From the IMG/VR virus record IMGVR_UViG_3300003375_000024: a stretch of 20,000 nt of DNA; one strand, 5' to 3'. Of this stretch, positions 2,124 through 17,150 are shown piece by piece. The position numbers and the translations under genes are program-made. How positions within the stretch are numbered: the first letter of the stretch is position 1; every line of letters starts with the position of its first letter. The stretch comes from an uncultured virus (IMG/VR IMGVR_UViG_3300003375_000024). Lineage: Duplodnaviria; Heunggongvirae; Uroviricota; Caudoviricetes. The notes under the pieces were generated by a model, which saw only the letters and a program-made list of their open reading frames with translations, did not search any database and was not told the origin of the DNA.

Positions 2124-2124
2124 T

Positions 2125-2253: not shown

Positions 2254-2387
2254 TATAACATAGAGGCAGGAGAGGATCCTGCCGGCGGTACTGCCTTCCA
2301 CGGGGAAAATCATGTGAATCATCTGTTGACAATTAAATCAATCTTGTTTACAATGTAGTTATTGAAGCAAACAACACGGAGAACGGC

Positions 2388-2944: not shown

Positions 2945-3037
2945 AGGATCTCTGGTGTATTGACATTTAATTCATTGTCTATTATAATGTAGTTGTAGTG
3001 AATAACCTTTAACCTTTAACAAAGAGAGGAACCCAAA

Positions 3038-3607: not shown

Positions 3608-3660
3608 ATCAACCAGCTGTACAATGTAGTTCTTGAAGCAAACAACACACGGAGAAACAA

Positions 3661-3924
3661 ATGAAAGTATCTTATCTTACACAGTTTGTAGACCACAAGA
3701 ATTCCTTTGCCAGTTTGTTTAAGCAACCACAGCTTGACATCAGCAACGCACAGGACCGGCAGCGTATCGCCAATATGATAGACGGTGCTCTCTCGCCCGA
3801 GAACTTGACTTGCGACGGTGAACTCAGCCGCACCGAGGTCCAGCGTCGGTACCGAGAGTTAACAGGTGCCGCTAGAGAATTGCTGACACTTGATCCTTCA
3901 GTTAAGTTTTACGAGTACGAATAA
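3661..3924 (+). CDS. Phage hypothetical protein (LSPENLTCDGE motif)
   Basis: Own promoter/RBS. Confidence 0.85.
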   Translation: MKVSYLTQFVDHKNSFASLFKQPQLDISNAQDRQRIANMIDGALSPENLTCDGELSRTEVQRRYRELTGAARELLTLDPSVKFYEYE

Positions 3925-3927
3925 TAC

Positions 3928-3949
3928 CAACGGGGCTTCGGCCCCGTTG
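3928..3949 (+). terminator. cUUCGg-tetraloop hairpin overlapping the next -35
   Basis: CAACGGGGC-TTCG-GCCCCGTTG, 9-bp perfect stem; no poly-U tail. Confidence 0.55.
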
Positions 3950-4005
3950 ACAATTAAATCAGTATCGGCTACAATGTAGTTACTGAAACGAAACACGGAG
4001 TTAAT

Positions 4006-4239
4006 ATGACTACGCTAACCACACCTAGTTACTTGATGTACACCGAAGCAGGCGACGAGGACGTCCACAAGATTGTCGAAGTTGCATTAGCTCTTAAACT
4101 TACCTGGGCAGAAACATATCCCATGCTTGTACGCTTAGCCAAGTTACCAAATCGTGGTGATGCTACAGATACTTCCGTCCGAGAGTGCGTCCATGAAGCT
4201 ATTGGCGCGTTTGACCGTTGCGAACCTTTTTACCTATAA
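4006..4239 (+). CDS. Hypothetical protein, 77 aa
   Basis: Own promoter/RBS. Confidence 0.8.
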   Translation: MTTLTTPSYLMYTEAGDEDVHKIVEVALALKLTWAETYPMLVRLAKLPNRGDATDTSVRECVHEAIGAFDRCEPFYL

Positions 4240-4248
4240 GGCACCATC

Positions 4249-4497
4249 ATGCTAAAGAATTACGTAGTATTGTATCGCATTGAAAGCGTTATGTCACCAC
4301 TAGACGCGCCGTTTGGTTTCCAGTGTTACGCTGAAGACTCCGATCATGCCGAGGAACAATGTCTTAATGCCTATGGTGACTGTGATGTCGTCTGGGTACA
4401 TCAAAGCACCCCAGATGCGGGTATGTCAGAAGCATTGAATGACTATTGGAATAATGGTATCGACGATCATAGTCCATACGGCACCATCAACTCCTAG
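4249..4497 (+). CDS. Hypothetical protein, 82 aa
   Basis: Follows previous gene by 9 nt, AAGG RBS. Confidence 0.75.
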   Translation: MLKNYVVLYRIESVMSPLDAPFGFQCYAEDSDHAEEQCLNAYGDCDVVWVHQSTPDAGMSEALNDYWNNGIDDHSPYGTINS

Positions 4498-4498
4498 G

Positions 4499-4590
4499 AT
4501 CTCAACCTAGAATCTCGGACCTAAAATCTCAACCTAGAATCTTAAACCTAGGTTGAGATTCTAATATCTCGGACCCGGATTTCGCGCGGC
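4499..4590. repeat. Degenerate 13-14 bp tandem repeat (ATCTCAACCTAGA) with one inverted unit
   Basis: Units at 4499, 4512, 4526, 4539, 4566; AATCTCAACCTAG 4525-4537 is inverted as CTAGGTTGAGATT 4548-4560. Confidence 0.85.
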
Positions 4591-4660
4591 AGGTTCACGC
4601 TTGACAATTAAATCATCATGCACTATAATGTTTATACATTAACACACGGGAGCAAGTGAT

Positions 4661-4822
4661 ATGCGTACATATAAAGCGTTCTACAAGGGCAAGTCATGTG
4701 TAGTGATAGCATCGTCATCATATGATGCCCAAGAGCAAGCCGCTAAGTTCTTCGGTGCTCGCAAATCATACCAGGTAGCTATTGTATTGGCTGATGTTGA
4801 AATTGATCCGGCGGGTCTGTAA
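4661..4822 (+). CDS. 53-aa hypothetical protein (MRTYKAFYKGK...); not in ORF track
   Basis: Cassette promoter 4601 and ACGGGAG RBS; TAATG coupling to next gene. Confidence 0.8.
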   Translation: MRTYKAFYKGKSCVVIASSSYDAQEQAAKFFGARKSYQVAIVLADVEIDPAGL

Positions 4823-5010
4823 TGGATGACATTACAATCGTTGTAATTGCCGGTGTTACCGCTATGAATGTGGTAGCGTTTATTGTAGGCTATATCTGGG
4901 GTGGCCACAATGAGCGAGTAGATTGGAATGATTTGATTAAGGAAGGTAAGTTACCACGGCCTGTGGTAGAACCTTATCGGTACTATAATACCGTCAAGTA
5001 CAGGAGATAG
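4822..5010 (+). CDS. Small single-pass membrane protein
   Basis: Hydrophobic N-terminal segment ITIVVIAGVTAMNVVAFIVGYIWG. Confidence 0.75.
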   Translation: MDDITIVVIAGVTAMNVVAFIVGYIWGGHNERVDWNDLIKEGKLPRPVVEPYRYYNTVKYRR

Positions 5011-5012
5011 TT

Positions 5013-5126
5013 ATGTTGGAACGAGGCAAAATTAAAGTGATTACCGAGTTGCTGGCGCAGTGGCAGTCAGGTGAGTTAAGTTCATATGACTTTGCTGAGG
5101 CAGTAAAGAAAGTGTTGTCGGTATAA
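5013..5126 (+). CDS. 37-aa hypothetical protein; not in ORF track
   Basis: AGGAG RBS, ATG 5013, TAA 5124-5126. Confidence 0.6.
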   Translation: MLERGKIKVITELLAQWQSGELSSYDFAEAVKKVLSV

Positions 5127-5135
5127 CCAAGGAGA

Positions 5136-5336
5136 ATGGCAATGTATCCTGACAAGAAGTTCGGACCACGTAAGGGCCTGGAAGGCCCGTTTACCTTTGT
5201 GAATGGCCGTGTCCTGTACTATGACGCCAAAGAAGGCCAGTATTATGATCCGCTAACGGATTTTTTTGTAGACAATGAGGAAATAGCCCTACTTCACGGC
5301 CTTCTGATGCGCCGTATACAGACTAACTCAATTTGA
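5136..5336 (+). CDS. Phage hypothetical protein (GLEGPF...LYYD.KEG.YYD)
   Basis: AAGGAG RBS; its TGA overlaps an inverted cassette core. Confidence 0.8.
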   Translation: MAMYPDKKFGPRKGLEGPFTFVNGRVLYYDAKEGQYYDPLTDFFVDNEEIALLHGLLMRRIQTNSI

Positions 5337-5348
5337 TTTAATTGTCAA
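5320..5348 (-). promoter_or_regulatory. Inverted cassette copy (TTGACA-17-TAGTCT)
   Basis: GATTTAATTGTCAA at 5335-5348. Confidence 0.55.
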
Positions 5349-5409
5349 GTGGTGTTGGAGATGGGTAGCCCCGCTGTCCATCCCGGGAAGCCCCTTCGAA
5401 TACACTACC

Positions 5410-5438
5410 AGTATAACCCCTCCTGATTTAATTGTCAA
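5410..5438 (-). promoter_or_regulatory. Inverted cassette promoter (TTGACA-17-TATACT), back-to-back with forward copy 5452
   Basis: GATTTAATTGTCAA 5425-5438; AGTATA 5410-5415. Confidence 0.75.
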
Positions 5439-5451
5439 GTCAATATAGCGG

Positions 5452-5523
5452 TTGACAATTAAATTCCAGTATGCAATAATTCGTTTGTTGACGAAAGCTG
5501 TATCGCAAAGCGAAAGCTAGCAG
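5452..5523 (+). repeat. Gene-less 72-bp cassette
   Basis: Near-identical to 12875-12946 and 12947-13018; no RBS/ORF. Confidence 0.85.
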
Positions 5524-5594
5524 TTGACAATTAAATCGTAGTCGGTTACAATGTAGTTCTTGAAGCGAAACGAAGTTCTTAAGCGAGAGCAAAT

Positions 5595-5774
5595 ATGTTT
5601 ACTTACAATGAAAGCACCAAGTCGTTTGACAGTGCAACAGAATCTATCTCGCTGTATGAGATAGAGCCGAGCTTGATGTACTCGCTGGTACGCAAGAGCG
5701 CAATTAGTGTTGCTGATTTTGAGCGTTGGCTTCAGCATTGCCAAGACGCATACATAGCGTTTAAAGCGAGTTGA
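5595..5774 (+). CDS. 59-aa hypothetical protein (MFTYNESTKSFD...); not in ORF track
   Basis: Promoter 5524, GAGAG-type RBS, stop is the TGA of the next -35. Confidence 0.7.
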   Translation: MFTYNESTKSFDSATESISLYEIEPSLMYSLVRKSAISVADFERWLQHCQDAYIAFKAS

Positions 5775-5944
5775 CAATTAAATCGTAGTCGTTTACAATG
5801 TAGTTCTTGAAGCGAAACGAGTTCCACGGGAGACTGACGATCATGGTGATACAAGACTTAGCCCGACTAGTCCCGGGCAGGACGCTTGACAATTAAATCA
5901 GTATCGCTTATAATTCTTTTATCGAAACGCAACGGAGAAAGACT

Positions 5945-6331
5945 ATGACCACATTGTTCAGCTTTGAAGCAGACGTTAGCGAGTTGGACCAGGCTCGCTC
6001 GGAGTATAGCGATTTTCACAAAGAAGCATTCGGCTTTCGCCCGCGCTGGGACTACAGCGCAATGACGCTCGCGGACTTTGACCGCGAGTTCGAGTATCTT
6101 GCACAAGAGTGCAAGCGCAATGCAGAACTACGCGCCGAGGCCGAGGCCGCCGCCTCAGTACGTCTTGAGCAGCGCATACTAAGCCTGCTTGAGTGTGGGG
6201 CTAAGAGCCGTGCAATGGCTCTGCGCTGGCTTGACGAAGCCGAAGGCACCAGAGGTGATGTTGACTTTCTGTGCTATTGTCTTGGTGTAGATTACGGCTA
6301 CATCAAGCAAGAAGACCTGCTTGATTCATAG
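5945..6331 (+). CDS. Phage hypothetical protein (YSDFHKEAFGFRPR motif)
   Basis: Own promoter/RBS. Confidence 0.85.
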   Translation: MTTLFSFEADVSELDQARSEYSDFHKEAFGFRPRWDYSAMTLADFDREFEYLAQECKRNAELRAEAEAAASVRLEQRILSLLECGAKSRAMALRWLDEAEGTRGDVDFLCYCLGVDYGYIKQEDLLDS

Positions 6332-6496
6332 GTCTGCCGGCCCATAGGAGAGCCCTGGTGCTCTCCCAGCCATGTGGTTGATACTAACACGTGGGTCTGT
6401 GCAAAAGCAACGCATAGGCTGTTTTAATCTCATTTGACAATTAAATCGTCAGGCTGTACAATGTAGTTCTTGAAGCAAACAACACGGAGAAAGACC

Positions 6497-6787
6497 ATGA
6501 TTTCAGCAGCCAAGCTTGAAGTGTTCACTAAAATGTCATCAGACTCGCTGACAGATATTATGCTTGACCAAGGCTACGACAACAGCGATGAGCCAATTTT
6601 GTTCACGCGGTTCAAGGGAATCAAAACACGCAGTGCGACAAAGCTTGACTTTTTGTACATCGTATCGTATCTAGACGGCCACGTTAAAGGCGGGTTAGCT
6701 GATGCGACTATCATTGTGACATATGATACAATGACAGAAAAGCTTGATGTTGAGTACGCAGATGGCAGAGAATACAACGAAGGTTAA
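6497..6787 (+). CDS. Hypothetical protein; start corrected to the ATG after the RBS
   Basis: ACGGAGA RBS then ATG 6497; track start 6470 lies inside the cassette. Confidence 0.8.
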   Translation: MISAAKLEVFTKMSSDSLTDIMLDQGYDNSDEPILFTRFKGIKTRSATKLDFLYIVSYLDGHVKGGLADATIIVTYDTMTEKLDVEYADGREYNEG

Positions 6788-6792
6788 CTAAA

Positions 6793-6809
6793 AGGGGCTT
6801 AGTGCCCCT
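6793..6809 (+). terminator. GGGGC-TTAGT-GCCCC hairpin just before a -35 (also at 7641-7661 and 13755-13771)
   Basis: Three copies with the same loop, each between a stop codon and the next TTGACA. Confidence 0.55.
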
Positions 6810-6875
6810 GCTGTTGACAATTAAATCGTCATCAGTTAATATATCAGTTCTGAAGCGAAACACACGGGGAAAGAC

Positions 6876-7052
6876 ATGGACCAAAAAGTAGAGCAGTTGC
6901 TAGAAGTGCAAGCGTTACTTCAGCAAGCTATTTACAAGCTGGGCAAAGTGGGCCTCAGGCGTGAGCGTGGCTATCGCACTAAAATGCACGACTTAGTGTT
7001 AGCAATAAATGCTGAGATTGAGAGCCTGCCCCAAGTAGAGCTTGACAATTAA
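6876..7052 (+). CDS. 58-aa helical hypothetical protein; not in ORF track
   Basis: Promoter 6814, ACGGGGA RBS, ends ELDN*. Confidence 0.75.
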   Translation: MDQKVEQLLEVQALLQQAIYKLGKVGLRRERGYRTKMHDLVLAINAEIESLPQVELDN

Positions 7053-7104
7053 ATCGTAGTGTGCGACAATGTAGTTCTTGAAGCAAACGACACGGAGATC
7101 TAAA

Positions 7105-7269
7105 ATGGACCGAATTCAAAAGCTTGAGCAAGTCAATCGCCTCTTGACTATCGCTCATGAGTTACTTCACGACAATGACGAGAAAGCTCTTGCTGACCAA
7201 TTGATTGACGTGATGGATGAAGTCAATGAAGTATTGTACGAATTAGAGCGTGACCCGCTTGACGATTAA
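7105..7269 (+). CDS. 54-aa helical hypothetical protein
   Basis: RBS then ATG 7105; ends LDD* in a TTGACG cassette variant. Confidence 0.75.
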   Translation: MDRIQKLEQVNRLLTIAHELLHDNDEKALADQLIDVMDEVNEVLYELERDPLDD

Positions 7270-7292
7270 ATCATAGTCGAGTACAATGTAGT

Positions 7293-7356
7293 TGTGGCCC
7301 AGTCGTGAGAACGCTTCACGATGCCGCGGATGACCGGGCCTCCGCTAACTCTCTGA
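7293..7356 (+). ncRNA. Candidate small structured RNA in a gene-less cassette
   Basis: Promoter 7259 without RBS/ORF; pairings GGCCC/GGGCC, TCGTGA/TCACGA, GCGGA/TCCGC. Confidence 0.35.
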
Positions 7357-7424
7357 CAGCATCGCTTGACAATTAAATCAAGCGATGCTATAATTCTTTT
7401 ACTGAAACGAAACGGGAGAAATTC

Positions 7425-7637
7425 ATGAAGACAGCAACGGTGCGAGGCGGTACAGTCAAGATTGGTGACTACGTTAGTTTTAAGAGCGACTATGAGCAAT
7501 GCGGGAAAGTCGTTGACATTAAAGACGCATGGGGTGGCACAATGCTAGTGCTTGAGAATGAGAACGGCTTCGGGGGCGATTATCTACAGTATGCTACTCG
7601 CACTCAAGAGATGGCTAGCGACTGCTGGGTAGAGTAA
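7425..7637 (+). CDS. Hypothetical protein, possible SH3/KOW-like barrel
   Basis: Own promoter/RBS; KIGDYVSF...GKVVDI. Confidence 0.8.
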   Translation: MKTATVRGGTVKIGDYVSFKSDYEQCGKVVDIKDAWGGTMLVLENENGFGGDYLQYATRTQEMASDCWVE

Positions 7638-7722
7638 CTAAAGGGGGCTTAGTGCCCTCTTGCTTGACAATTAAATCGTCGTATGAGATAATTCTTTTGT
7701 CGAAACGAAACGGAGAAAGACC

Positions 7723-7920
7723 ATGACTAACGAACAATTCGCTAAAGCATACGAAGCCTACTTAGAGCAAGGTGGTCGTGTGATTGTACTTAAAGCTGCT
7801 AAGCCCCGTAAAGAAGAGCGGTGGTTGTCTAAGCGTTATACTATCGCTAGCATGGGCAATCTAAAGTCCCGTCTCACAGGTATCTCTAGTGTTGACAGAG
7901 TTAAAGACGGTACTGCTTGA
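7723..7920 (+). CDS. Basic hypothetical protein, 65 aa
   Basis: Own promoter/RBS; stop is the TGA of the next -35. Confidence 0.8.
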   Translation: MTNEQFAKAYEAYLEQGGRVIVLKAAKPRKEERWLSKRYTIASMGNLKSRLTGISSVDRVKDGTA

Positions 7921-7974
7921 CAATTAAATCAAGTGGGGCTATAATAGCCCTACTGAAACGCAACGGAGAAAGTA

Positions 7975-8154
7975 ATGCAGACTAAATCGAAAAACCCTAT
8001 CCCACGCAACGGGCTGTTTGCTGAAAAGACTCTTGGCGAGTTACAAGAGTACATTGAGCAGATGTCGGCTAAAGAGAAGGCTTTTGCTTACATGATTATG
8101 ACAATGACAATGAATTCTTGTCATCGTCTTGTAAACGAAGCAGAAACCGTGTAA
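7975..8154 (+). CDS. 59-aa hypothetical protein; not in ORF track
   Basis: Promoter 7917, ACGGAGA RBS, ATG 7975, TAA 8152-8154. Confidence 0.75.
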   Translation: MQTKSKNPIPRNGLFAEKTLGELQEYIEQMSAKEKAFAYMIMTMTMNSCHRLVNEAETV

Positions 8155-8158
8155 TCAG

Positions 8159-8176
8159 GCGGGGGTTCGCCCCCGC
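8159..8176 (+). terminator. GC hairpin with TTCG loop abutting the next -35
   Basis: GCGGGGG-TTCG-CCCCCGC. Confidence 0.55.
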
Positions 8177-8239
8177 TTGACAATTAAATCGCTGTCGTTT
8201 ACAATGTAGTTCTTGAAGCAAACAACACGGAGAAATACC

Positions 8240-8578
8240 ATGGGTTATGTAGACAACGCTGAGTTCAGCAACACCGACGATATGATTGATAGCGTGAACA
8301 ATATCGTTCACAATCATGTGCAGAATATGCGTCAGGTGGGCGCGGTGGAGCTTGGCCTAGATCGCCGGTGTGGGTCAGCATGGGTCAATGACGATTACAT
8401 CGTTACAGATGCCGGTAGTCGATTTGACTACTATGCAGGTTTCGAGTATGTAGACGCCGATGACATTCGCGTGGTTGGTGAATATAAATTCTATTCACGA
8501 CATTCAAGTCGTATCGCTGATTGTCTTGAAAATCTGGCAGAGGCAGACGGGTTGTGTGAGTCAGAGCTTGACAATTAA
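8240..8578 (+). CDS. Hypothetical protein; start corrected
   Basis: RBS then ATG 8240; ends LDN*. Confidence 0.8.
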   Translation: MGYVDNAEFSNTDDMIDSVNNIVHNHVQNMRQVGAVELGLDRRCGSAWVNDDYIVTDAGSRFDYYAGFEYVDADDIRVVGEYKFYSRHSSRIADCLENLAEADGLCESELDN

Positions 8579-8630
8579 ATCAGTATCGTCTACAATGTAG
8601 TTCTTGAAGCGAACAACACGGAGAAAGACC

Positions 8631-8858
8631 ATGACTAATGACCAGAAGCTGGCAGTAAAAGCAATTCATGAGCTTAGCTCGTTGGCAGCTGACTTCAAGA
8701 TGGGCATCATAAGCAACGATTACATTCGTGCTCAGCTGTTCAATGCGTTTGTTGGCATTGGCCTTGATGCGCCAAAAGTCGTAAAAGAAATTAAGTCCGC
8801 TATGCAGAACTGGGGCGAGTATGATGACGAAGAAGAAGAAGACGAGCGGGTCGCTTGA
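8631..8858 (+). CDS. Hypothetical protein with acidic tail; start corrected
   Basis: RBS then ATG 8631; stop is the TGA of the next -35. Confidence 0.8.
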   Translation: MTNDQKLAVKAIHELSSLAADFKMGIISNDYIRAQLFNAFVGIGLDAPKVVKEIKSAMQNWGEYDDEEEEDERVA

Positions 8859-8917
8859 CAATTAAATCAGTATCGTTTACAATGTAGTTCTTGAAGCAAA
8901 CAACACGGAGAAATACC

Positions 8918-9106
8918 ATGACTGACTTTAACGCACAAGATTATCCCGACGGTGTAGAAGACGATCAGTACGAAGTCACCGGCTGTGCTGAGGGCGAGGA
9001 AGAGTATGACTACGACGATAGCATGGATGGCGACTGGGACTCTGCCATGGCTTCGGCAGGGTTCGGTACCGACGAAGACTACGGCTTCGCTGACGAAGTT
9101 TATTAA
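8918..9106 (+). CDS. Extremely acidic 62-aa protein (SAMASAGFGTDEDYG motif)
   Basis: RBS then ATG 8918; Asp/Glu-rich with no Lys/Arg. Confidence 0.8.
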   Translation: MTDFNAQDYPDGVEDDQYEVTGCAEGEEEYDYDDSMDGDWDSAMASAGFGTDEDYGFADEVY

Positions 9107-9182
9107 CTAGTATGCGCGAGGTTGACAATTAAATCAACCTCGCGTACAATGTAGTTCTTGAAGCAGACAACGGAGAAAGACC

Positions 9183-9278
9183 ATGCGTGAAAAGACAGCT
9201 GAAGACCTACGTGTACTTGCTGAACTCAAAGCAAAATTGTACACAGCATTACTAATGGCCCGCTTACAACGAGGTTGA
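9183..9278 (+). CDS. 31-aa peptide; not in ORF track
   Basis: Full cassette with RBS; MREKTAEDLRVLAELKAKLYTALLMARLQRG*, stop in the next -35. Confidence 0.65.
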   Translation: MREKTAEDLRVLAELKAKLYTALLMARLQRG

Positions 9279-9337
9279 CAATTAAATCAACCTCGCGTAC
9301 AATGTAGTTCTTGAAGCAAACAACACGGAGAAATACC

Positions 9338-9667
9338 ATGATTACAGTAGATCAAGTTCTAGTCGCAAAGCAAGCCGCAGTCCAGGCCTCTAACGAGTAT
9401 TTCATGACACACCTCAAAGGCCGCGATACCGGCGCGTGTGGGTTCGCATGGGTTGAAGTGTACGTTGACCGCACTAACAGCAAGCAGGCGCAAGAGCTGA
9501 TCAAAGCCGGCTTCCGTAAAGACTACAAGCCCAAGTGCCTGTCGATGTGGAATCCCGGTGAGCTTCGTGCTCAGAACATTGACGCCAAAGATGCTGGCGC
9601 TAGACGCATGGCTGCAATGCTTGCGAATCTTGGCTTGAAGGCCTACGCTGGCTCACGACTAGACTAG
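9338..9667 (+). CDS. Phage hypothetical protein (GACGFAWV motif); start corrected
   Basis: RBS then ATG 9338. Confidence 0.85.
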   Translation: MITVDQVLVAKQAAVQASNEYFMTHLKGRDTGACGFAWVEVYVDRTNSKQAQELIKAGFRKDYKPKCLSMWNPGELRAQNIDAKDAGARRMAAMLANLGLKAYAGSRLD

Positions 9668-9745
9668 CAGTACATACGCCTGGTTGACAATTAAATCAGC
9701 CAGGCGTATAATGTAGTTCTTGAAGCAAACAACACGGAGAACGGC

Positions 9746-9934
9746 ATGGCTTATACTGAAAAGCAGTTAGACAAGATTTATAAGGCGCATGAAAAGTCAG
9801 GTCCGCGTGGTGCCTATTTTGATTGGTTTGGTTATCATCCGCTTCCGGGTAATAAAGGCACTCAAGACGTAGAGGATTTTATCATTGATTTTTATACTCA
9901 GTATAACGCTCTCGCCGGTTATCCTGTTTATTAA
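9746..9934 (+). CDS. Hypothetical protein, 62 aa
   Basis: Own promoter/RBS. Confidence 0.8.
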   Translation: MAYTEKQLDKIYKAHEKSGPRGAYFDWFGYHPLPGNKGTQDVEDFIIDFYTQYNALAGYPVY

Positions 9935-10063
9935 GAGTACCTCCACTGAGTAGGGTCAGTCGTTTCACCCCTTGAGCAAGGTTCCCTACCGCTCACCTCC
10001 ACTTGACAATTAAATCAGCCTAACATACAATGTAGTCATAGCAGTTAACAACAGGAGCTTACC

Positions 10064-10384
10064 ATGAAAAAAGTACTCGCAGTTCTTGTATTAGCGATTA
10101 TGACTACAGGCTGTGCATCGGCACAAAACCGTGGCTATAATCGTGGCTATGCCAATCCAGGCTACAACAATTCCTATCGTGTAAACAACGGTTACAACTA
10201 TGCTGGCGCTGCCATCGTCGGAGCGGTCGTAGGAGCTGTGGCTGCTGGCGTCATTAGTCAATCATACGCCCAACCAATGTCACAGCCGGTGTGTTACCAG
10301 GTGCCCGCCACCACATATGTGCCTAGTCAATTGAACCCTAACCAGATGGTGCCTATCACCACCGTTAATACTGTTTGTCGTTAG
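10064..10384 (+). CDS. Predicted lipoprotein with glycine-zipper-like segment
   Basis: MKK + hydrophobic core + TTGC lipobox-like site; GAAIVGAVVGAVAAG. Confidence 0.75.
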   Translation: MKKVLAVLVLAIMTTGCASAQNRGYNRGYANPGYNNSYRVNNGYNYAGAAIVGAVVGAVAAGVISQSYAQPMSQPVCYQVPATTYVPSQLNPNQMVPITTVNTVCR

Positions 10385-10439
10385 TTGACAATTAAATCAG
10401 GTAGGTCTACAATAGACCTATCGAAACAGGAGAAGCAAA

Positions 10440-10622
10440 ATGCCTAAATTTTATTCAGAACAAGCCTTCCAAGAAATGGTGGCACAGTATGTAGCGAATG
10501 GTTTCACCACCTCAGCTGCCGAGGAGATTGTTCGAGCAGAGGAAGTGATTGCCATGCAGGAATTTGATGAGTGGTTAGATGAGGTAGACGACACATCATA
10601 CTACACAGACATTGACAATTAA
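10440..10622 (+). CDS. Acidic hypothetical protein, 60 aa
   Basis: Own promoter/RBS; ends IDN*. Confidence 0.8.
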   Translation: MPKFYSEQAFQEMVAQYVANGFTTSAAEEIVRAEEVIAMQEFDEWLDEVDDTSYYTDIDN

Positions 10623-10671
10623 ATCAGTATCGGTTACAATGTAGTTCTTGACACACACAACGGAGAGTACC

Positions 10672-10857
10672 ATGTTTACAGATAAGCAAATGAAAGATTT
10701 TATAGCGTATCGCAAAGTCCAGCTGGGTGGCAAGTACAATATGTTTGATCCGCGAGCCACTCGGGCCACAGGTTTGTCCGAGTCCGAGTACGTGTTTGTA
10801 ATGAAGAATTACACAGCATTGAGAGAAGCTGCCGAGAAAGCTGCGGTTGACAATTAA
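10672..10857 (+). CDS. Hypothetical protein (KVQLGGKYNMF motif); start corrected
   Basis: RBS then ATG 10672; ends VDN*. Confidence 0.8.
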   Translation: MFTDKQMKDFIAYRKVQLGGKYNMFDPRATRATGLSESEYVFVMKNYTALREAAEKAAVDN

Positions 10858-10905
10858 ATCACCATCGCTTATAATGTAGTCACTGAAACGAAACGGAGAA
10901 ATACC

Positions 10906-11313
10906 ATGGCCTACATGTCCCAAGAAAAGAAAGCGAAACTTGCTCCCACCATCAAATCAATTCTTAAGCGGTATAACATCAAAGGCAGTCTGGCAGTCCG
11001 TAATCACAGTTCGCTTGTCTTGAACATCAAGTCAGGTCCGATTGACTTCATCACCAATACTAACGAGACCATCCAGCGCCAGCCAGGTGGCTTCCGTAAC
11101 GGCTCACCAGCGGTAGATCGCATTCAGGTCAATCCATACTGGTACCGTGAACACTTTACCGGCGAGGCCCTGGCCTTTCTGTCAGAAGTAATCCCTGCCA
11201 TGAATGACGGCAACCATGACCGCAGCGAGGCCCAGTACGACCACTTTGATGTGGGTTGGTATATTGATGTTAACATCGGGCAATGGGATAAGCCTTACAT
11301 CGTTACCGCTTGA
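10906..11313 (+). CDS. Phage hypothetical protein (MAYMSQEKK...DHFDVGWY)
   Basis: Own promoter/RBS; stop is the TGA of the next -35. Confidence 0.85.
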   Translation: MAYMSQEKKAKLAPTIKSILKRYNIKGSLAVRNHSSLVLNIKSGPIDFITNTNETIQRQPGGFRNGSPAVDRIQVNPYWYREHFTGEALAFLSEVIPAMNDGNHDRSEAQYDHFDVGWYIDVNIGQWDKPYIVTA

Positions 11314-11369
11314 CAATTAAATCAGGTAGGGCTATAATAGCCCTACTGAAACAACCAACGGAGAAATAC

Positions 11370-11576
11370 ATGGAAATCATCATGCCAGAACAAGTAGCAT
11401 TTGACATTGTAGGTGGTCGGGAAATCTCCACCATTAAGTTGAATTCCATGGGTCCAGGGTACGAGACCTGTGTATTCTATCCGAACGGAGACAACCAGGT
11501 GGTAGCCACGTATGATACACTAGAGGATGCCATTGCGAATCACAAGTTCATAGTTGCATGTGATTTTGCCGTTTGA
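11370..11576 (+). CDS. Hypothetical protein (YETCVF motif); start corrected
   Basis: RBS then ATG 11370. Confidence 0.8.
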   Translation: MEIIMPEQVAFDIVGGREISTIKLNSMGPGYETCVFYPNGDNQVVATYDTLEDAIANHKFIVACDFAV

Positions 11577-11630
11577 CAATTAAATCAGGTAGGGCTATAA
11601 TAGCCCTACTGAAACAAAACGGAGAGCCCC

Positions 11631-11831
11631 ATGAAGTTCACAGCCGGCAAGATCAAGCGATCAGGTAAGATTGTGGAAGTTCTAGGCATCACTCCAGGGA
11701 AGGGCATCTCCGTATGCTCTGAAGTATACAGCGACAAAGCATTAGAGCAGCAACGGTACCTACCGCTATCCACCGAGTTCGTTTGGGTAAGAGAGTTTAA
11801 CTTTAAGGATCAACCATGCCAGTCCGAGTAG
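11631..11831 (+). CDS. Hypothetical protein, 66 aa
   Basis: Own promoter/RBS. Confidence 0.8.
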   Translation: MKFTAGKIKRSGKIVEVLGITPGKGISVCSEVYSDKALEQQRYLPLSTEFVWVREFNFKDQPCQSE

Positions 11832-11995
11832 AAGTCCAATTCACCGCCTACGAACCAGGCACTGGCAACATCCTAGCCGAGGGTATCAGTACCATTCCAG
11901 GTAGTACCAATTGTTGGCAGGCAGAACAGGCCGTTCGAGCCATGTACAACGGCCTAGAAGTCTGTATCCGGAGTTCAACTCCATTCTACAACTAA
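11816..11995 (+). CDS. 59-aa hypothetical protein (MPVRVEVQF...); not in ORF track
   Basis: AAGGA RBS, overlaps previous gene end, TAA 11993-11995. Confidence 0.7.
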   Translation: MPVRVEVQFTAYEPGTGNILAEGISTIPGSTNCWQAEQAVRAMYNGLEVCIRSSTPFYN

Positions 11996-11996
11996 C

Positions 11997-12127
11997 ATCT
12001 CGGACCTAGAATCTCAACCTAGGATCTTAAACCTGAAATCTCAACCTCAAATCTCAACCCTAGATTTCAAACCTAACATTTCGCATCCAGGTTTCGCATC
12101 CGAATTTCGCGCCCGCATTTCGTACAC
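11997..12127. repeat. Ten 13-14 bp tandem units drifting from ATCTCAACCTAG to ATTTCGCATCC
   Basis: Units at 11997, 12011, 12024, 12038, 12051, 12064, 12078, 12091, 12104, 12117; homologous to 4499-4590. Confidence 0.85.
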
Positions 12128-12188
12128 TTGACAATTATATCATGTGACGCTATAATACGTACACATTGATACACACACGGAGATCCAC

Positions 12189-12458
12189 ATGGACTACACA
12201 GTAGAAGTATACAAGCGTGACGGACGTACCAAAGCGGGTGAGCGTCTTGAGATTAAACTTAGCTACCCTGCTGTAAACAACTGTATTCAACTTGAGAAGG
12301 ATCTGCTAAAGGTCTTTACTCACGAGAAAGGCTTCCGTCTTGCTATCCACGAGACATTCGTAACACGCAAGAATCTGCTCTCAGGCGTAGAGTTCCAAGA
12401 GCGGTACGATACACCAAGTTTCTGTAGTCCGTCAAGCGAAAGCTTCTGGGCTAACTAA
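12189..12458 (+). CDS. Phage hypothetical protein (YK.D.RTK.GERL...TP.FCSPSSE.FW)
   Basis: Own promoter/RBS. Confidence 0.85.
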   Translation: MDYTVEVYKRDGRTKAGERLEIKLSYPAVNNCIQLEKDLLKVFTHEKGFRLAIHETFVTRKNLLSGVEFQERYDTPSFCSPSSESFWAN

Positions 12459-12526
12459 GCATGGGGGCGAGGTTGACAATTAAATCAACCTCGCGTACAA
12501 TGTAGTTCTTGAAACAAGGAGAAGTT

Positions 12527-12712
12527 ATGGTTAAGCTATCAGATATTCAGGTGGGCTCACGGGTAATGGTCCGCGGTTGTTTCGGTATGGATGAGCCGGT
12601 TAAGGCCACAGTCACAGAAGTATTCGAGGAAATCAAGAACGGTAAGCCGGGAATCACCTATGATAATTCCTGGGCCTACCTCAACCAGGTGGTCCAGGTG
12701 GTGGAATACTAG
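12527..12712 (+). CDS. Hypothetical protein, possible SH3-like; start corrected
   Basis: AAGGAGA RBS then ATG 12527. Confidence 0.8.
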   Translation: MVKLSDIQVGSRVMVRGCFGMDEPVKATVTEVFEEIKNGKPGITYDNSWAYLNQVVQVVEY

Positions 12713-12833
12713 GACCGGGCCGCCAGGCCTGGGATCCAACCACCAGGCCAGCCGCCAAGGCCGCAGCCCCACCGCCAGGAGCGGAAGCGGGCAGGACCAA
12801 ACGCCGCCCTCGCGGAGGAGGTCAGCAATTTAT

Positions 12834-12862
12834 ATTGTACACGATAATGATTTAATTTGCAA
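12834..12862 (-). promoter_or_regulatory. Inverted cassette promoter (TTGCAA-ATTAAATC...-TACAAT), back-to-back with forward copy 12875
   Basis: GATTTAATTTGCAA 12849-12862; ATTGTA 12834-12839; 17-bp spacer. Confidence 0.7.
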
Positions 12863-12874
12863 GCAAAATCTCAG

Positions 12875-13018
12875 TTGACAATTAAATCATCGTATGAGAT
12901 GATTCGTTTGTCGAAGAAAACTGTATCGCTAAGCGAAAGTTAGTAGTTGACAATTAAATCGTAGTATGCAATAATTTGTTTGTTGACGAAAACTGTATCG
13001 CAAAGCGAAAGCGACTAG
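12875..13018 (+). repeat. Two tandem gene-less 72-bp cassettes
   Basis: -35 starts at 12875, 12947, 13019, exact 72-bp period; shared CTGTATCGC(A/T)AAGCGAAAG. Confidence 0.9.
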
Positions 13019-13091
13019 TTGACAATTAAATCGTAGTATGCAATAATTCAGTTTCTGAAGTTAAACGAAGTTTCTTAACAAGCGAGAAATT

Positions 13092-13325
13092 ATGCGTAAA
13101 GTATCTCAGACAGCAGCACAGATTTTAGATTTAGCAGACACGCACTACTCTACGACTATGACGTTTAGCGATGCTGATAGCGTGTCAAGTCGCAACAACA
13201 CGACAGTATCAGAATGGTTTTTGTTGTCAAGTGATGACGCTGAAGTGACAATTAAAATTGTCGAAGATAGCGAGCGCAATACTGACGACTATGTATCGCT
13301 TAGCGTGATAGTCGAGCGATTCTAG
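13092..13325 (+). CDS. Hypothetical protein, 77 aa, no Gly or Pro
   Basis: Promoter 13019; AAGCGAGA in place of the GGAG RBS. Confidence 0.75.
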   Translation: MRKVSQTAAQILDLADTHYSTTMTFSDADSVSSRNNTTVSEWFLLSSDDAEVTIKIVEDSERNTDDYVSLSVIVERF

Positions 13326-13409
13326 CAGTAAAAAGTAGAGCTTGACAATTAAATCGTCAAGCTCTACAATGTAGTTCTTGCAGCGAAACACTTAACAAGA
13401 GAGTGAAAC

Positions 13410-13748
13410 ATGAAAACAGATTACACTTTAGTCGAAGTACAGAGCATTTCCGATTCGTACTACGGTTGCTTTATCGTGAATGATCGTGATGCTGACATCA
13501 AGCTGAGCGATTTGCTTGCGAACGAACGCACTAGCATCTTTTTGTTCGAGTGTCAAGACGCATACTGCGAAGTGCGAATGACGAATCCGCTAGACGAGGA
13601 GGACCAAGAGTGTGACGTTGCGCTAGTGTCGAGCGTGACTGTGCTAAGCAAAGAGCAGTATGCTGAGCGCCAGCGCACCATCGACGCGGCGCGCAAGCGT
13701 GATCGTGCAGCAATTGCTGCGCTGCAAACGCTGATCGTAGTCGAGTAA
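13410..13748 (+). CDS. Hypothetical protein, 112 aa
   Basis: Promoter 13342; AAGAGAG RBS. Confidence 0.75.
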   Translation: MKTDYTLVEVQSISDSYYGCFIVNDRDADIKLSDLLANERTSIFLFECQDAYCEVRMTNPLDEEDQECDVALVSSVTVLSKEQYAERQRTIDAARKRDRAAIAALQTLIVVE

Positions 13749-13849
13749 GCTAAAGGGGGCTTAGTGCCCCCGCTAGTTGACAATTAAATCGTAGTATGCA
13801 ATAATTCAGTTTCTGAAGTGAAACGGTTCTTAACAAGTGAGAGCGAAAA

Positions 13850-14128
13850 ATGCGTAATACTTTCAACGCCAGCAATGTCCTGTTCGTCAAAGTCGCAGTC
13901 AAGAAAAACTTAGACGCTAAGTTTCTCGCAGTGACAGCAGATAACTTCGAGTCGTTCAATGCTAAAAATGCTTTATACTATGCTACTCTTAGCGCAGCGT
14001 CACTCTACGCTGATCTCATTAAGCAAGTTTTAGTGTTACAGAACGCAAGTAACACAAAATTAGTTAAGTTAATCTTAACTAAGCAAGTCGAGAAATTGCT
14101 CGAAAAGAACAGCGAAGTAACAGCGTAA
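13850..14128 (+). CDS. Hypothetical protein, 92 aa, no Gly/Pro/Trp
   Basis: Promoter 13777; GAGAG RBS. Confidence 0.75.
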   Translation: MRNTFNASNVLFVKVAVKKNLDAKFLAVTADNFESFNAKNALYYATLSAASLYADLIKQVLVLQNASNTKLVKLILTKQVEKLLEKNSEVTA

Positions 14129-14234
14129 AACACACGCTGTAAGCGCATTAGAGAGCGTATGCGCTCTTTAATGCGCGAGTTGATAGTAGCGTATGCGTTT
14201 CAGTTTAAAGCGCATACAGAGCGTTTAAATCGAT
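14129..14234 (+). repeat. Structured intergenic element (copies at 14989-15096 and, diverged, 6332-6433)
   Basis: CTGTAAGCGCA(T/C)TAGAGAGC...GCTCTTTA(A/G)TGCGC.AGTTGATAG...TACAGAGCGTTTAAATCG shared by the two desert copies. Confidence 0.8.
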
Positions 14235-14391
14235 TTGACAATTAAATCGTAGTATGAGATGATTCGTTTGTTGACGCAGCAAACGAAGCGCAGCGAAGTG
14301 AAGTGCAGATAGTGCTTGACGATTAAATCGAAGTAGTTTAAAATGTAGTTTCTGAAGTTAAACGAAGTACTCTTAACAAGTGAGAGCGAAT

Positions 14392-14988
14392 ATGTTTACA
14401 TCAATCGACGCAGTTGCAGTAAAAGCAAAGCAAGACGCAGCAACGAATTTTCTCAGCGCAAGCGACATTAGCGCAGCACTGCGAGCAGGAACTAACTTCG
14501 CTAACATCGAATACTGTGTTGAGCTTAACACTAGCGCAGCGAATCGTGCTGTTAAAATTCGCAAAGCTGTACGCTGCAACGCTCAGTTATTCGCAAGCAT
14601 TAAAGATTACGATTTGTATCGTAAGCAAGTGCTGCGCTCAGCAAGCAAGCTCAGCGAGTCAGAAATCACTGACTTCGTAGTAAGCGAAACTTACTTCGAG
14701 CACACAGATTGCTTTAGCATCGTGCAACACAAGAAAGACGCTGCTAAGCAATACTTGTATGCGATCTATAATCGTGCTGAGTCAGTAATCTTTGTTGACG
14801 ATGTTGAGTCTACTAAAGAATACGCAGCATCGTTCATGACTAAAAGTGACGCAGCAAAGCTGCTAGACGATAGCAAGTTAGTCTATAACAAGACTAACGA
14901 CGTAACGCACGACGTAACTCTGCGAGTGCTGACGCTGAGCAACATCGTAGAAATGACAGTCAACAAGCAAGTGCTGACTGTATCGTAA
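14392..14988 (+). CDS. Hypothetical protein, 198 aa, with one Gly and no Pro/Trp; start corrected
   Basis: Promoter 14316 (TTGACG-17-TAAAAT); GAGAG RBS then ATG 14392. Confidence 0.8.
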   Translation: MFTSIDAVAVKAKQDAATNFLSASDISAALRAGTNFANIEYCVELNTSAANRAVKIRKAVRCNAQLFASIKDYDLYRKQVLRSASKLSESEITDFVVSETYFEHTDCFSIVQHKKDAAKQYLYAIYNRAESVIFVDDVESTKEYAASFMTKSDAAKLLDDSKLVYNKTNDVTHDVTLRVLTLSNIVEMTVNKQVLTVS

Positions 14989-15096
14989 AACGCACTCTGT
15001 AAGCGCACTAGAGAGCTGCTAACGCTCTTTAGTGCGCTAGTTGATAGCAGAGCATCACTTTACGATTTGAACGCTTACAGAGCGTTTAAATCGTTC
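14989..15096 (+). repeat. Second copy of the structured intergenic element
   Basis: 15-bp stem 15002-15016/15024-15038 with a compensatory change relative to 14143-14176. Confidence 0.8.
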
Positions 15097-15221
15097 TATT
15101 TAATTGTCAAGCGATTCCAAAAACTGGGACACCGTGGTGTTGTTTTTTAGCTACAATACAAGCTTACTTTAGTGCTGTCGCGCCAAACAAAAAGTGCGTA
15201 AACCTATTTTCTATGGTTGCC

Positions 15222-15302
15222 TCGTGGATTACGGTAGGTTACGGTAGATTTCCGGATATCCGGTAGGTTACGGTAGGTTATCGTGGATTACGGTAGCTTA
15301 CG
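15222..15302. repeat. 10-bp-period tandem repeat (TTACGGTAGG)
   Basis: ACGGTAGGTT, ACGGTAGATT, CGGTAGGTTA x2, CGGTAGCTTA, with TCGTGGATTA twice. Confidence 0.85.
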
Positions 15303-15386
15303 CCGGAGCTAGGGCAAAGGTAGAAAAACGGTATTTTCAAAAACCGGAATAAAATTTTTTCCAGGATCCCGGTAGATTTTTGGTCT

Positions 15387-16055
15387 CTATGCTTTATTAC
15401 TTTGAATCCACGCTCTAGCAGGATTCTTATTAGGGGCTTGGTTAGTGAATTTCACTAGCTTCTTATACGTGGCTTCTATCTGTTCTCTTGTAGTTTTATC
15501 ATCTCCACTGTTATCTATGACAGCGGCATTCTCAAAAGCGTTTGCAAACTTACCCATATTGTTATGGGCGGCATGCCATTTCTTACTAATAACATCATCA
15601 GGAACTGTTCTGGTACGGAGTTGATTGCGTTGTCTTGCAACTTCAAAGTCTGTATTCACTATAACAACAAAGTTATTATATCCTAGCTCATCAAATTTGG
15701 CTTTCATTCTGATGACTTTATCAAAGTTATCACCGGTTCCGTCTATAACGATGCCTAGTCTTCCGTATACGGCTAGAGCTATCTTAGATGCGGTAACTTG
15801 TTTTGCACGGTCTCTGACTTGATTTCGTTGATCTTGTTCTGCATCTGGCATTTTAAAGTCTAGATTATTCTTAGACATCAGATATTCAAATGCTGTATCA
15901 CTGTTGATGGGAACGTATCCTAGGCTTTGGAGGCCTAGTTGTTTTGATATATAACCCTTGCCGCTACCGGGTCCGCCTATTAGGAAGACTATCTTGAATA
16001 TGGCAGGATCGTTGATACCTTCTATCAGGTCAATCATTTCTCTTAGTGTTTTCAT
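15387..16055 (-). CDS. P-loop kinase (AAA_33 / zeta-toxin-like fold)
   Basis: Walker A GGPGSGKG, INSD, IVIDGT Walker-B-like, R..LR.R lid. Confidence 0.8.
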   Translation of the reverse strand: MKTLREMIDLIEGINDPAIFKIVFLIGGPGSGKGYISKQLGLQSLGYVPINSDTAFEYLMSKNNLDFKMPDAEQDQRNQVRDRAKQVTASKIALAVYGRLGIVIDGTGDNFDKVIRMKAKFDELGYNNFVVIVNTDFEVARQRNQLRTRTVPDDVISKKWHAAHNNMGKFANAFENAAVIDNSGDDKTTREQIEATYKKLVKFTNQAPNKNPARAWIQSNKA

Positions 16056-16106: not shown

Positions 16107-17150
16107 ATGAGATATAAAGAATTCGCTATAGAGAGTTATGAGTTAGATGAAGAGATTAGTCTATCAAAATATGATTCTGAAGTTAAAAAAGTTATTCAAA
16201 CAGGAATTGTTAAGGCATTAAAAGATGTGTACGAATCCTACTGGGCTGATGACGACGAATACGAGAATAGTAAAAAAGAATACAACAAGGGAAATACAGA
16301 AAAATTCTATAAATTAATGGAGGTAGATCTTTTAAATCATGTAGCATACGAGGTAAATGATGCATTATACGTGTTAGGATATAGAATCGAACCCGCATTA
16401 CAGGAGATAGACTCTAAATTACTTAATGATAATATAGGCGGATATGCTAAAGGTTATGAAATAGTCATGAATAGAAGTGTCATGGTAAAGATAACTTCTT
16501 TAATCTGTAAAGTAATAAAAAATAAGGTAGAGAAAAAATATGTAATCGGAGAATTACTAAAGGGATTGTATTCAGTGGTAGAGGAAATGATTGAAAATGG
16601 CGGGGNAGATTTATTAGAGTTCAGTGATTTAAAGAAGGCTATTAATGAATATGCCGGTACATTTATACATGAATTAGTCCATATAATCCAACATGCACGG
16701 CAAAAGCATAGAGGCGGTAAATTTGAATTTCGCAGTCATCTTGACAAAGAAAAAAATGAATTTGCTAAGTTAGCAAGAAAAAATAGTGTATTTCCTAGTG
16801 ATGACTCGGCTTCATCTCCTAAGTTATCCAGGGAAGAACAAGCAAGATACTATGATTTATACCTTGCCAGTACTGCGGAAATAGCTGCCCATGCTCACAA
16901 TATTGCGCTAGGTATAATACGTAGGTATGCGTTAGAACAACCAAGGCCGATTAAAAGTTCGTACATAAATGTAGGTAACAATGCTCTTAGGGATATAACT
17001 CGTCTAATTGACGAATATCTAGATAAACGATATAAAGGTAAAACAGATCCCAAGGTTCAGGCAGTATATAAACGATATCATAAGTTAGTGTATCAAGAAG
17101 TATATAAACAGATACAAGATACTCTTAAGACAGCTAACTTTAAGGCGTAA
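16107..17150 (+). CDS. Protein with HExxH zinc-metallopeptidase-like motif, possibly virion-associated
   Basis: FIHELVHIIQH and downstream EIAAHA; late promoter upstream; one ambiguous base at 16606. Confidence 0.7.
   Translation: MRYKEFAIESYELDEEISLSKYDSEVKKVIQTGIVKALKDVYESYWADDDEYENSKKEYNKGNTEKFYKLMEVDLLNHVAYEVNDALYVLGYRIEPALQEIDSKLLNDNIGGYAKGYEIVMNRSVMVKITSLICKVIKNKVEKKYVIGELLKGLYSVVEEMIENGGXDLLEFSDLKKAINEYAGTFIHELVHIIQHARQKHRGGKFEFRSHLDKEKNEFAKLARKNSVFPSDDSASSPKLSREEQARYYDLYLASTAEIAAHAHNIALGIIRRYALEQPRPIKSSYINVGNNALRDITRLIDEYLDKRYKGKTDPKVQAVYKRYHKLVYQEVYKQIQDTLKTANFKA

Follow-up and report, generated by a model that had tools for sequence, protein, structure and literature searches.

In phage T5 the first-step-transfer DNA, and in phage T7 the early DNA that enters by transcription, are short and strongly promoted, encode take-over and anti-defence functions and lack nuclease sites, namely particular 4–6-bp sites at a fixed leading end. 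Some animal DNA viruses are depleted of TC and CC by APOBEC3, which defines its C by the 5′ neighbour on single-stranded DNA; that depletion is partial and genome-wide and occurs in eukaryotic viruses, and we know of no bacterial APOBEC3 counterpart that edits phage DNA. Avoidance of restriction sites and protospacer-adjacent motifs (PAMs) in phages, where selection likewise removes a short word, is partial and genome-wide, to judge from the available parts of two reports (PMC4687349; PMC4246573). T4-type phages also carry promoter–early stem-loop (PeSL) cassettes, in which many small early genes each have a copy of one promoter, often overlapped by a stem-loop, and the modules shuffle; the available parts of these accounts mention no dinucleotide ban (PMC2839356; PMC4122927). 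Here we describe a tract, positions 12821–15116 of a 20,000-nt window of an uncultured freshwater giant phage (IMG/VR record IMGVR_UViG_3300003375_000024; all coordinates are those of the whole window), from which the dinucleotides GG and CC are nearly absent.

The locus shares with PeSL systems its modular architecture, with 43 copies of one early promoter in the window and relocated cassette genes in one relative. Unlike T5 and T7, it lacks a whole dinucleotide rather than particular sites, its proteins are reshaped, sites avoided elsewhere in the genome are kept, and a fixed leading end is doubtful. In contrast to phage-wide site avoidance, the ban is local, near-absolute and only two letters long, and it is strand-specific in sister lineages, some of which ban C after any pyrimidine (YC) and in this resemble the APOBEC3 pattern. 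An earlier note, made from the sequence alone, had drawn attention to this desert and knew of no description of such a localized one; our literature search likewise found no published description.

Two stretches of the tract are almost clean. Positions 13881–15116 (1236 nt) hold one GG, at 14488, and no CC, where base composition predicts 60.3 and 50.2, and positions 12822–13449 (628 nt) hold one GG, at 13216, and no CC against 26.5 and 16.6 expected; both counts, and the assignment of the second GG to a Trp codon, agree with the earlier note. Over 12821–15116 (or 12822–15116, as first delimited) we counted 22 GG+CC versus ∼205 expected from base composition. Twenty of these are concentrated in a relaxed patch of ∼430 nt, 13450–13880 (431 nt; nine GG and 11 CC versus ∼54 expected), which includes the run of five G and five C at 13755–13771 that the note had seen to survive. 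Outside this patch the sole GG/CC of the tract are one conserved Trp codon and one conserved Gly codon. The longest GG/CC-free gaps measure 628, 608, 395 and 233 nt, all in the tract, with one further gap of 122 nt inside the relaxed patch; elsewhere none exceeds 104 nt. In the rest of the window the observed/expected ratio (O/E) of GG+CC is 0.8–1.2 in most 500-nt windows, with a mild dip to 0.45–0.75 at 5251–9500. Other dinucleotides are retained: AA and TT are normal, GC (O/E 1.6–2.0) and CG (1.6) are raised, and AG is slightly raised (1.2–1.3). The G+C fraction is 0.42 in the tract versus 0.36–0.48 in its flanks, and in one relative (L001) 0.43–0.46 versus 0.30–0.40. Homopolymer collapse is excluded because AA/TT are normal, GC/CG raised and G+C kept, and avoidance of UV or oxidative damage was ruled out, TT not being avoided in the tract. 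The features of the locus are as follows.

12821–15116, no strand: GG/CC desert, the whole cassette, with sharp and conserved borders
12641–12820, + strand: GG/CC-dense, C-rich, T-poor array directly 5′ of the desert, with the densest 100-nt windows (28–32 GG+CC)
12875–12903, 12947–12975 and 13019–13047, + strand: three tandem sigma-70-type promoters, 72 nt apart, all with TG before the −10
13092–13325, + strand: gene of a 77-amino-acid (aa) acidic protein, holding the conserved Trp codon (GG at 13216)
13342–13370, + strand: promoter of the 112-aa gene
13410–13748, + strand: gene of a 112-aa acidic protein, a relaxed member (nine GG+CC versus 20.7 expected)
13755–13771, no strand: G5/C5 stem-loop between two units, holding eight of the 22 residual GG/CC
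13777–13805, + strand: promoter of the 92-aa gene, with a TG-extended −10
13850–14128, + strand: gene of a 92-aa protein without Gly, Pro or Trp
14129–14232, + strand: structured, terminator-like element of alternating GC/CG, with direct repeats D5 and D7; paralogue of 14989–15094
14235–14263 (with TG) and 14316–14344, + strand: two tandem promoters
14392–14988, + strand: gene of a 198-aa protein, a conserved cassette member with a single Gly (GG at 14488)
14989–15116, + strand: terminal structured element with a hairpin at 15062–15094; no GG/CC versus 11.4 expected
5423–5823, + strand: partly relaxed, paralogous mini-cassette with the same double promoter (at 5452 and 5524) and spacer and a GG-free ribosome site

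The depletion is not a by-product of the proteins encoded. When the 198-aa protein was rewritten with the codon usage of the window, 29.0 ± 4.7 GG+CC were expected in its open reading frame (ORF; 5000 simulations, minimum 12), and shuffling its own codons gave 22.9 ± 3.6, as against the one observed. The 77- and 92-aa ORFs contain one and two versus 12.6 and 13.8 expected, and the 112-aa ORF follows with the nine versus 20.7 listed above. Likewise, four non-coding pieces of the tract contain no GG/CC, where 14.1, 5.7, 22.6 (14129–14391) and 11.4 are expected; the only ordinary non-coding piece is 13749–13849 (nine versus 9.0 expected). The ban thus reaches codon choice, codon junctions, promoters, leaders and terminators, and a cause at the level of tRNAs or codons was rejected because the junctions and the non-coding DNA obey it as well. 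These results support a constraint that acts on the nucleic acid rather than the proteins, as the earlier note had proposed, and they place the 198-aa ORF far below the codon-shuffled null, one of the comparisons that the note had named. The proteins bear the cost: in 479 aa the four cassette products have two Gly, one Pro and one Trp, the 198-aa protein having a single Gly and the 92-aa protein none of the three residues, as had been noted before, whereas other proteins of the window have 5.9% Gly, 2.9% Pro and 1.4% Trp.

To follow the ban through evolution, we collected relatives from an IMG/VR scan (17 loci) and a metagenome scan (18 loci), which are labelled L001 onwards; L038 was left out of the counts, as it lies on the same contig as L001. 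These contigs reach 327–353 kb, and CheckV implies genomes of ∼350–370 kb for most records (for example, 9% completeness of a 33.7-kb sister contig corresponds to ∼370 kb). Eight metagenome contigs with 69–92% protein identity were analysed; seven of them keep the tract over 1.3–2.5 kb, with at most three GG+CC in the 198-aa gene versus 56–65 expected, and one (L042) is relaxed. The Trp and Gly codons named above account for all GG left in the closest relatives. Across 14231–15116, seven relatives differ from the window by 114–212 substitutions and yet contain one to eight GG+CC; the same substitutions placed at random yield 23–47. Taken together, eight related contigs from independent assemblies hold to the ban at a divergence of 13–25%. 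Since substitutions are frequent and yet avoid creating the word, the ban is maintained by ongoing purifying selection. Alignment of the 198-aa homologues, a check suggested in the earlier note, revealed that the clade has other residues at the conserved Gly and Pro columns of the family (DG..ATK, LTPS, LLxP). The other cassette genes recur too: homologues of the 77-aa protein (66–90% identity) and of the 92-aa protein (82–93%) were each found in five contigs related to the window, and homologues of the 112-aa gene in relatives contain zero to eight GG+CC versus 32–40 expected.

L036 has a second desert, a satellite, which holds the closest allele of the 112-aa gene (93%), and cassette genes therefore move as modules between positions. 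This satellite (L036, 1391–2350) is a GG/CC-poor cassette that has G4/C4 hairpins at its bounds and carries homologues of the 92- and 112-aa genes. In three further loci (L051–L053) the member of the 198-aa family is ordinary and the neighbouring genes are GG/CC-free over 490–730 nt; the ban goes with the position of the cassette and not with a single gene.

The banned word differs between lineages. The GG/CC-only type forms one clade on the protein tree (nine rows, support 100/99), and the other word types are scattered, although composition may distort this tree. Specifically, tracts of up to 1280 nt in L008/L009, L012, L017, and part of L006 and L015/16 are without GG, CC, GA or TC; L008, L012 and L017 have counts of zero or close to it for each of the four words, and L013 has an O/E ≤ 0.21 for each. 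These tracts encode proteins without Gly, Pro, Trp, Asp or Glu, and their leaders are without any Shine–Dalgarno sequence. In a third form the ban concerns one strand: the coding strand of L014 (326.4–328.4 kb of the near-complete genome G001, described below) has no TC and no CC versus 39 GA and 20 GG, and L050 is similar. Other lineages are partly or hardly depleted; among the partly depleted ones, coding-strand YC is the more depleted in seven of 12 and GR (R, purine) in one of 12. All banned words amount to C after a pyrimidine, which is G before a purine, or to the CC/GG half of this set, on both strands or on the message strand only. In L017 the count is zero over 1.3 kb and conserved residues are sacrificed; a cost at each site therefore fits better than a cumulative binding signal. 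The main addition made here is that every one of the three forms of the word is represented among the lineages of a single protein family.

The tract closes a ∼15-kb early region and forms a self-contained cassette for immediate-early expression. Relatives have the same borders to the base, ...TTAATTGTCAAGCGATT|CC on the right and ...CGCGGAGGAG|GTCAGC on the left, and an inverted copy of the TTGACAATTAAAT box of the promoter lies at the right border, at 15097–15112. After the initial triple promoter, one or two promoters precede each cassette gene. Five of the seven cassette promoters have TG before the −10 hexamer, versus neither of the two neighbouring ordinary promoters scanned, and the cassette leaders are of the type CTTAACAAGTGAGAGCGAA, without a GGAG ribosome site. 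Directly upstream, the dense array runs on beyond the stop codon of the ORF at 12509–12712; its non-coding part (12713–12820) has 44 C, 38 G and three T, with 20 CC and 14 GG. A dense array of variable length occupies the same place in L036, L037, L040/41, L043 and L044 (six contigs) and is the GG/CC-densest stretch of each locus. No consistent reading frame was found through the array, and it folded only slightly better than shuffled sequences (z = −2.0); it may serve to load Rho, act as a decoy or mark a boundary. An Rfam search of 12400–15500 (E ≤ 1) gave no match.

Window positions 1–15116 form the early region, in which the + strand (27–14344) carries one promoter, TTGACAATTAAATC-N10-TAnAAT, 43 times, about once per small gene and in many cases within an inverted repeat such as CGAGG...CCTCG. 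Seven of the copies are in the tract, and none lies on the + strand to the right of 15116. The other 36 belong to ordinary units that share the promoter of the cassette and yet have a normal GG/CC content. Leaders of the form GGAG-N4–12-ATG number 34 in 1–12820 and none in the tract. The mini-cassette at 5423–5823 has eight GG/CC in ∼400 nt versus an estimated ∼35, and its ORF (5595–5770) begins with MFT. Sigma-70-type promoters and GGAG ribosome sites suggest a proteobacterial host. The promoter word had no occurrence in IMG/VR, no cultured phage had DNA nearly identical to the window, and contig ends fall in the repeated promoters. The only recognizable genes in the window and its close relatives are ClpP and UvdE, the rest being unassigned. 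For several genes, ORF callers place the start too far upstream, at a TTG, and translate the leader, which creates false shared N-termini (MKQTTRRNTM).

Gene orientation and G+C change immediately to the right of the tract. At that point, 15224–15309 is occupied by an iteron of 10-bp periodicity (GGTTACGGTAG and variants) in six overlapping copies, with a palindromic centre at 15253–15262; this may be an origin or a regulator array. It is followed by the gene of a 222-aa P-loop kinase of the Zeta-toxin/AAA_33 type (15387–16055, − strand). The single N of the window, at 16606 and outside the tract, interrupts a 347-aa ORF (16107–17150).

The 198-aa protein has 36 homologues in a 90%-cluster collection, and its family gave 223 hits among 1.84 billion representatives of 50%-identity clusters, none of them named or assigned to a family. 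Among 135 full-length representatives drawn from the best 150 of the 223 hits, 15 have at most two Gly+Pro+Trp, six of these also having at most one Asp+Glu, so that about one in nine is under a ban; 34 are low in these residues and 86 are ordinary. An AlphaFold2 model of the 198-aa protein reached a predicted local confidence (pLDDT) of 91. Its best VIA-align match was the Rho inhibitor YaeO/Rof (Z 5.6, 69 residues, root-mean-square deviation 2.7), below the level at which a match stands out; WYL domains and Hfq score alongside it, and the match is no stronger than a shared Sm-like barrel would give. BFVD returned matches to uncharacterized phage proteins only, ESM Atlas scores were ≤ 0.77 and uninformative, and an ordinary family member had no tblastn match in cultured phages. 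The 198-aa protein is a candidate counter-measure or take-over factor.

The near-complete relative G001 (99% complete; loci L018–L035) carries the 198-aa family together with Gp23, a Gp20 portal, a T4-type terminase and gp15, as well as a family B polymerase and a UvsX-like recombinase; none of its 234 ORFs of ≥ 150 aa encodes an RNA polymerase subunit. Gene content assigns G001 to the T4 superfamily. In T4, such packaging genes go with headful packaging and permuted ends. Permuted ends are therefore likely here, and a fixed first-entering end doubtful, if this relative is a guide to the window clade; a search for Gp23 in one 33.7-kb fragment of that clade was silent, and so was its control. 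Elsewhere in G001 (e.g. L025:11483–12028, L022:7365–8822, L018:10922–19894) there are genes for NAMPT, an NMNAT/NUDIX enzyme and a protein with a NADAR domain, for at least nine radical-SAM proteins in a row, for ClpX, ClpP, ClpB, DnaJ and a peptide deformylase, and for a large set of sugar-modifying proteins, one of them a 1576-aa multi-glycosyltransferase/methyltransferase. Three + strand tracts of G001 that are CC-free with an excess of GG (262369–264643, 266905–268066 and 275211–276154) were set aside, as they encode collagen-triple-helix fibre repeats and have a trivial cause.

How might such a ban arise? Our tentative preference is for a factor that senses strands and acts at single sites, on C according to its 5′ neighbour (or on G according to its 3′ neighbour). 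Early in infection, this factor would act at each C preceded by C, that is, at G before G on the other strand, and each hit would be costly for a unit whose products must be made regardless. The cassette would then have shed the word by recoding, and paid for this with Gly, Pro, Trp and a normal ribosome site. We suspect that the reader senses strands because sister lineages include bans on the coding strand only; they ban C after any pyrimidine. Its targets would be not duplex sites but DNA that very heavy transcription has opened, or else one strand at a time, template or non-template, and the reader could be a nuclease, a deaminase or a base-modifying enzyme with a one-base context. The ban, its upkeep by selection, the build of the cassette and the lineage words are demonstrated here, and we infer the nature of the reader, its host or phage origin and the roles of the cassette proteins. 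DarT1, which ADP-ribosylates guanine, was considered as the reader and dropped, since the available part of PMC11543638 gives it no consensus motif; G001 does encode a NADAR domain.

A bolder form of this explanation seems to us possible but somewhat doubtful: that a widespread, undescribed activity, be it host immunity or a phage weapon, hits C by its 5′ neighbour only (CC, or TC and CC), that phages answer with a word-free first or lasting cassette, and that the 198-aa Sm-like protein is the antidote, whose own gene would be invisible to the attack. TG-extended −10 promoters resist AsiA-type shutoff. Together with the non-GGAG leaders, those of the cassette may mean that it is built to outlast the switch-off of ordinary early units.

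Several observations weigh against a strand-sensing, per-site factor. The factor itself is postulated. In the window clade the ban is symmetric, with an O/E of 0.93–1.07 for TC and 0.83–0.96 for GA (TC falls to 0.74 in L044, the most distant member), and it is sister lineages only that point to strand sensing. Heavy early transcription alone is not enough to impose the ban, because the 36 units with the same promoter are ordinary. Residual GG/CC are generally not restricted to hairpin stems: such a restriction, which we considered as a rule, held for 13755–13771, L036 and L008 and failed at the other residual sites. The four cassette proteins matched no Pfam or PHROG family, bar one weak PHROG hit (E = 0.0016), no PDB structure in Foldseek at E ≤ 0.001 and no PDB sequence profile. 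Finally, an ArcS2-like gene beside the tract in three relatives points to modification of the DNA by the phage itself.

By that alternative, which takes up the second idea of the earlier note, the cassette is kept free of a phage guanine modification set by the 3′ neighbour (GG here, GA and GG in sister lineages), so that the unmodified host polymerase reads unmarked incoming DNA. The gene in question encodes a 303–316-aa protein with an ArcS core domain (DUF5591, E = 1.5e-6 to 5.9e-6; NCBIfam archaeosine synthase alpha, 4.6e-10; a PC-X3-KPW motif) and lies 2.9–4 kb right of the tract in L001/L038, L043 and L036. Phage ArcS2, which consists of the ArcS core domain, converts dPreQ0 in DNA to dG+ together with DpdA2 (available part of PMC10516641), and phage DpdA reportedly picks its G by the 3′ neighbour, strictly at GA in phage iggy and at two motifs in CAjan (available parts of PMC10484667 and PMC7544227); a specificity of this kind matches the banned words. 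G001 also has GTP cyclohydrolase I (FolE), a PTPS/QueD-like gene and the radical-SAM genes mentioned above. The CAjan motifs are reportedly GA and GGC. However, the ArcS2-like gene is absent from this position in the window, L040/41 and L044, all of which have the desert; DUF5591 had no match in five of five more distant records, two of them ≥ 92% complete; and QueC was absent above the cut-off in all five. No transglycosylase candidate was found: PF01702 had no match in 10 of 10 related records, although the same model is blind to the DpdA2 of Vibrio phage nt-1, and phrog_10773 had none in five of five. The ArcS2-like protein had no tblastn match in cultured phages. DpdA2-type insertion affects < 0.1% of G (PMC10516641, available part), far too sparse for a dinucleotide word, and replication genes, which would also be read from incoming modified DNA, are not word-free. 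Phage nt-1, which has both DpdA2 and ArcS2, shows no local desert (longest GG/CC-free gap 262 nt), and the available part of PMC10516641 mentions no unmodified island. Genome-wide, nt-1 (HQ317393.2) has an O/E of 0.66 for GG and 0.56 for CC, with GA and TC not depleted (1.11). We consider self-modification unlikely. Slightly less likely still is the proposal of the earlier note that the tract, as first-exposed DNA, evades a duplex-DNA defence that needs GG/CC, such as a type I-F CRISPR system with its CC PAM, a type II system with an NGG PAM, or restriction sites. The symmetry of the ban in the window clade, its extension over non-coding DNA and tandem strong promoters that suggest the very first transcription speak for it, as does the proteobacterial host suggested above, in which such CRISPR types are common. 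The depletion in both orientations that a PAM would cause is indeed found in the two clean stretches of the window, but the family as a whole departs from it (one strand only in L014 and L050), and neither a PAM nor a palindrome explains bans on one-strand YC; a TTC PAM would not require sister lineages to lose every TC. Furthermore, the tract keeps palindromes that are avoided elsewhere (TCGA, 16 versus 8.4 expected in the tract and 105 versus 236 outside; TGCA, 11 versus 8.4 and 287 versus 450). In 107 kb of non-desert DNA of the clade the O/E was 0.44 for TCGA, 0.64 for TGCA, 0.62 for ACGT and 0.74 for GATC, and AGCGCT was absent (15.3 expected), which suggests host restriction systems with those sites. 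Of seven tracts, those of the window and six relatives, all but that of L036, which falls slightly short, have TCGA and TGCA at or above expectation; ACGT varies, with four versus 8.4 expected in the tract of the window. A restriction-proof first-entering segment is doubted because it should avoid the sites that the rest of the genome avoids. The T4-type packaging genes of G001, to the extent that this relative is representative, make a fixed first-entering end doubtful; the same-promoter units are ordinary; and with tens of thousands of sites in the genome, the loss of ∼200 is of use only while the remainder stays unexposed.

A constraint on the transcript, whether escape from Rho (YC), from a GGAG-cutting RNase such as T4 RegB or from Shine–Dalgarno-like GG pairing, so that expression persists after shut-off, we regard as quite improbable. 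The coding-strand-only YC bans of L014 and L050 would suit it, all 34 ordinary leaders have GGAG and the cassette leaders do not, the C-rich upstream array resembles a Rho loading site, and the weak best match of the modelled 198-aa protein is to a Rho inhibitor (YaeO/Rof; Z 5.6, 69 residues). Rho, a factor that prefers YC, is known to shape the composition of the message strand, and in this it recalls the YC-only sister lineages; the outcome described in the available part of PMC13323073 is a graded purine bias, unlike the zero count seen here. Rho alone does not fit, because coding-strand TC is untouched in the window (O/E ∼1.0), which leaves the YC sites of Rho in place, and GG is banned there as strictly as CC. 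Avoiding GGAG needs only a 4-mer, and a hazard at each site accounts for zero tolerance better than a signal from cumulative binding would; the RegB family had no match in five relatives, where the control was silent as well. A mutational footprint without selection, such as CC-context deamination of a hyper-transcribed region, is highly improbable: AG is raised (O/E 1.2–1.3), as GG-to-AG changes would have it, but G+C is not lowered in the tract, GC and CG are raised in absolute terms, the residual GG are conserved Trp and Gly codons, and frequent substitutions avoid creating the word. An assembly or base-calling artefact, which the earlier note already doubted, can be dismissed for practical purposes, because the same tract recurs in contigs from many separate and independent assemblies, with open frames and normal AA/TT runs.

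Motif avoidance is usually weak and genome-wide; here it is local and near-absolute, strong enough for a group of proteins to lose three amino acids and the normal ribosome site. New in this work are the giant-phage clade with the symmetric GG/CC form, the internal control provided by 36 units with the same promoter, and the evidence against a generic anti-restriction reading. For uncultured phages, a word-free tract can serve as a sequence-only marker of a critical early cassette. If the postulated reader exists, the lineage words (GG/CC; GR/YC; one-strand YC) would describe its specificity and so offer a handle for finding it, the candidates being a new defence, a new host-shutoff enzyme or an unrecognized consequence of DNA modification. 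The family of the 198-aa protein offers a concrete candidate for testing.

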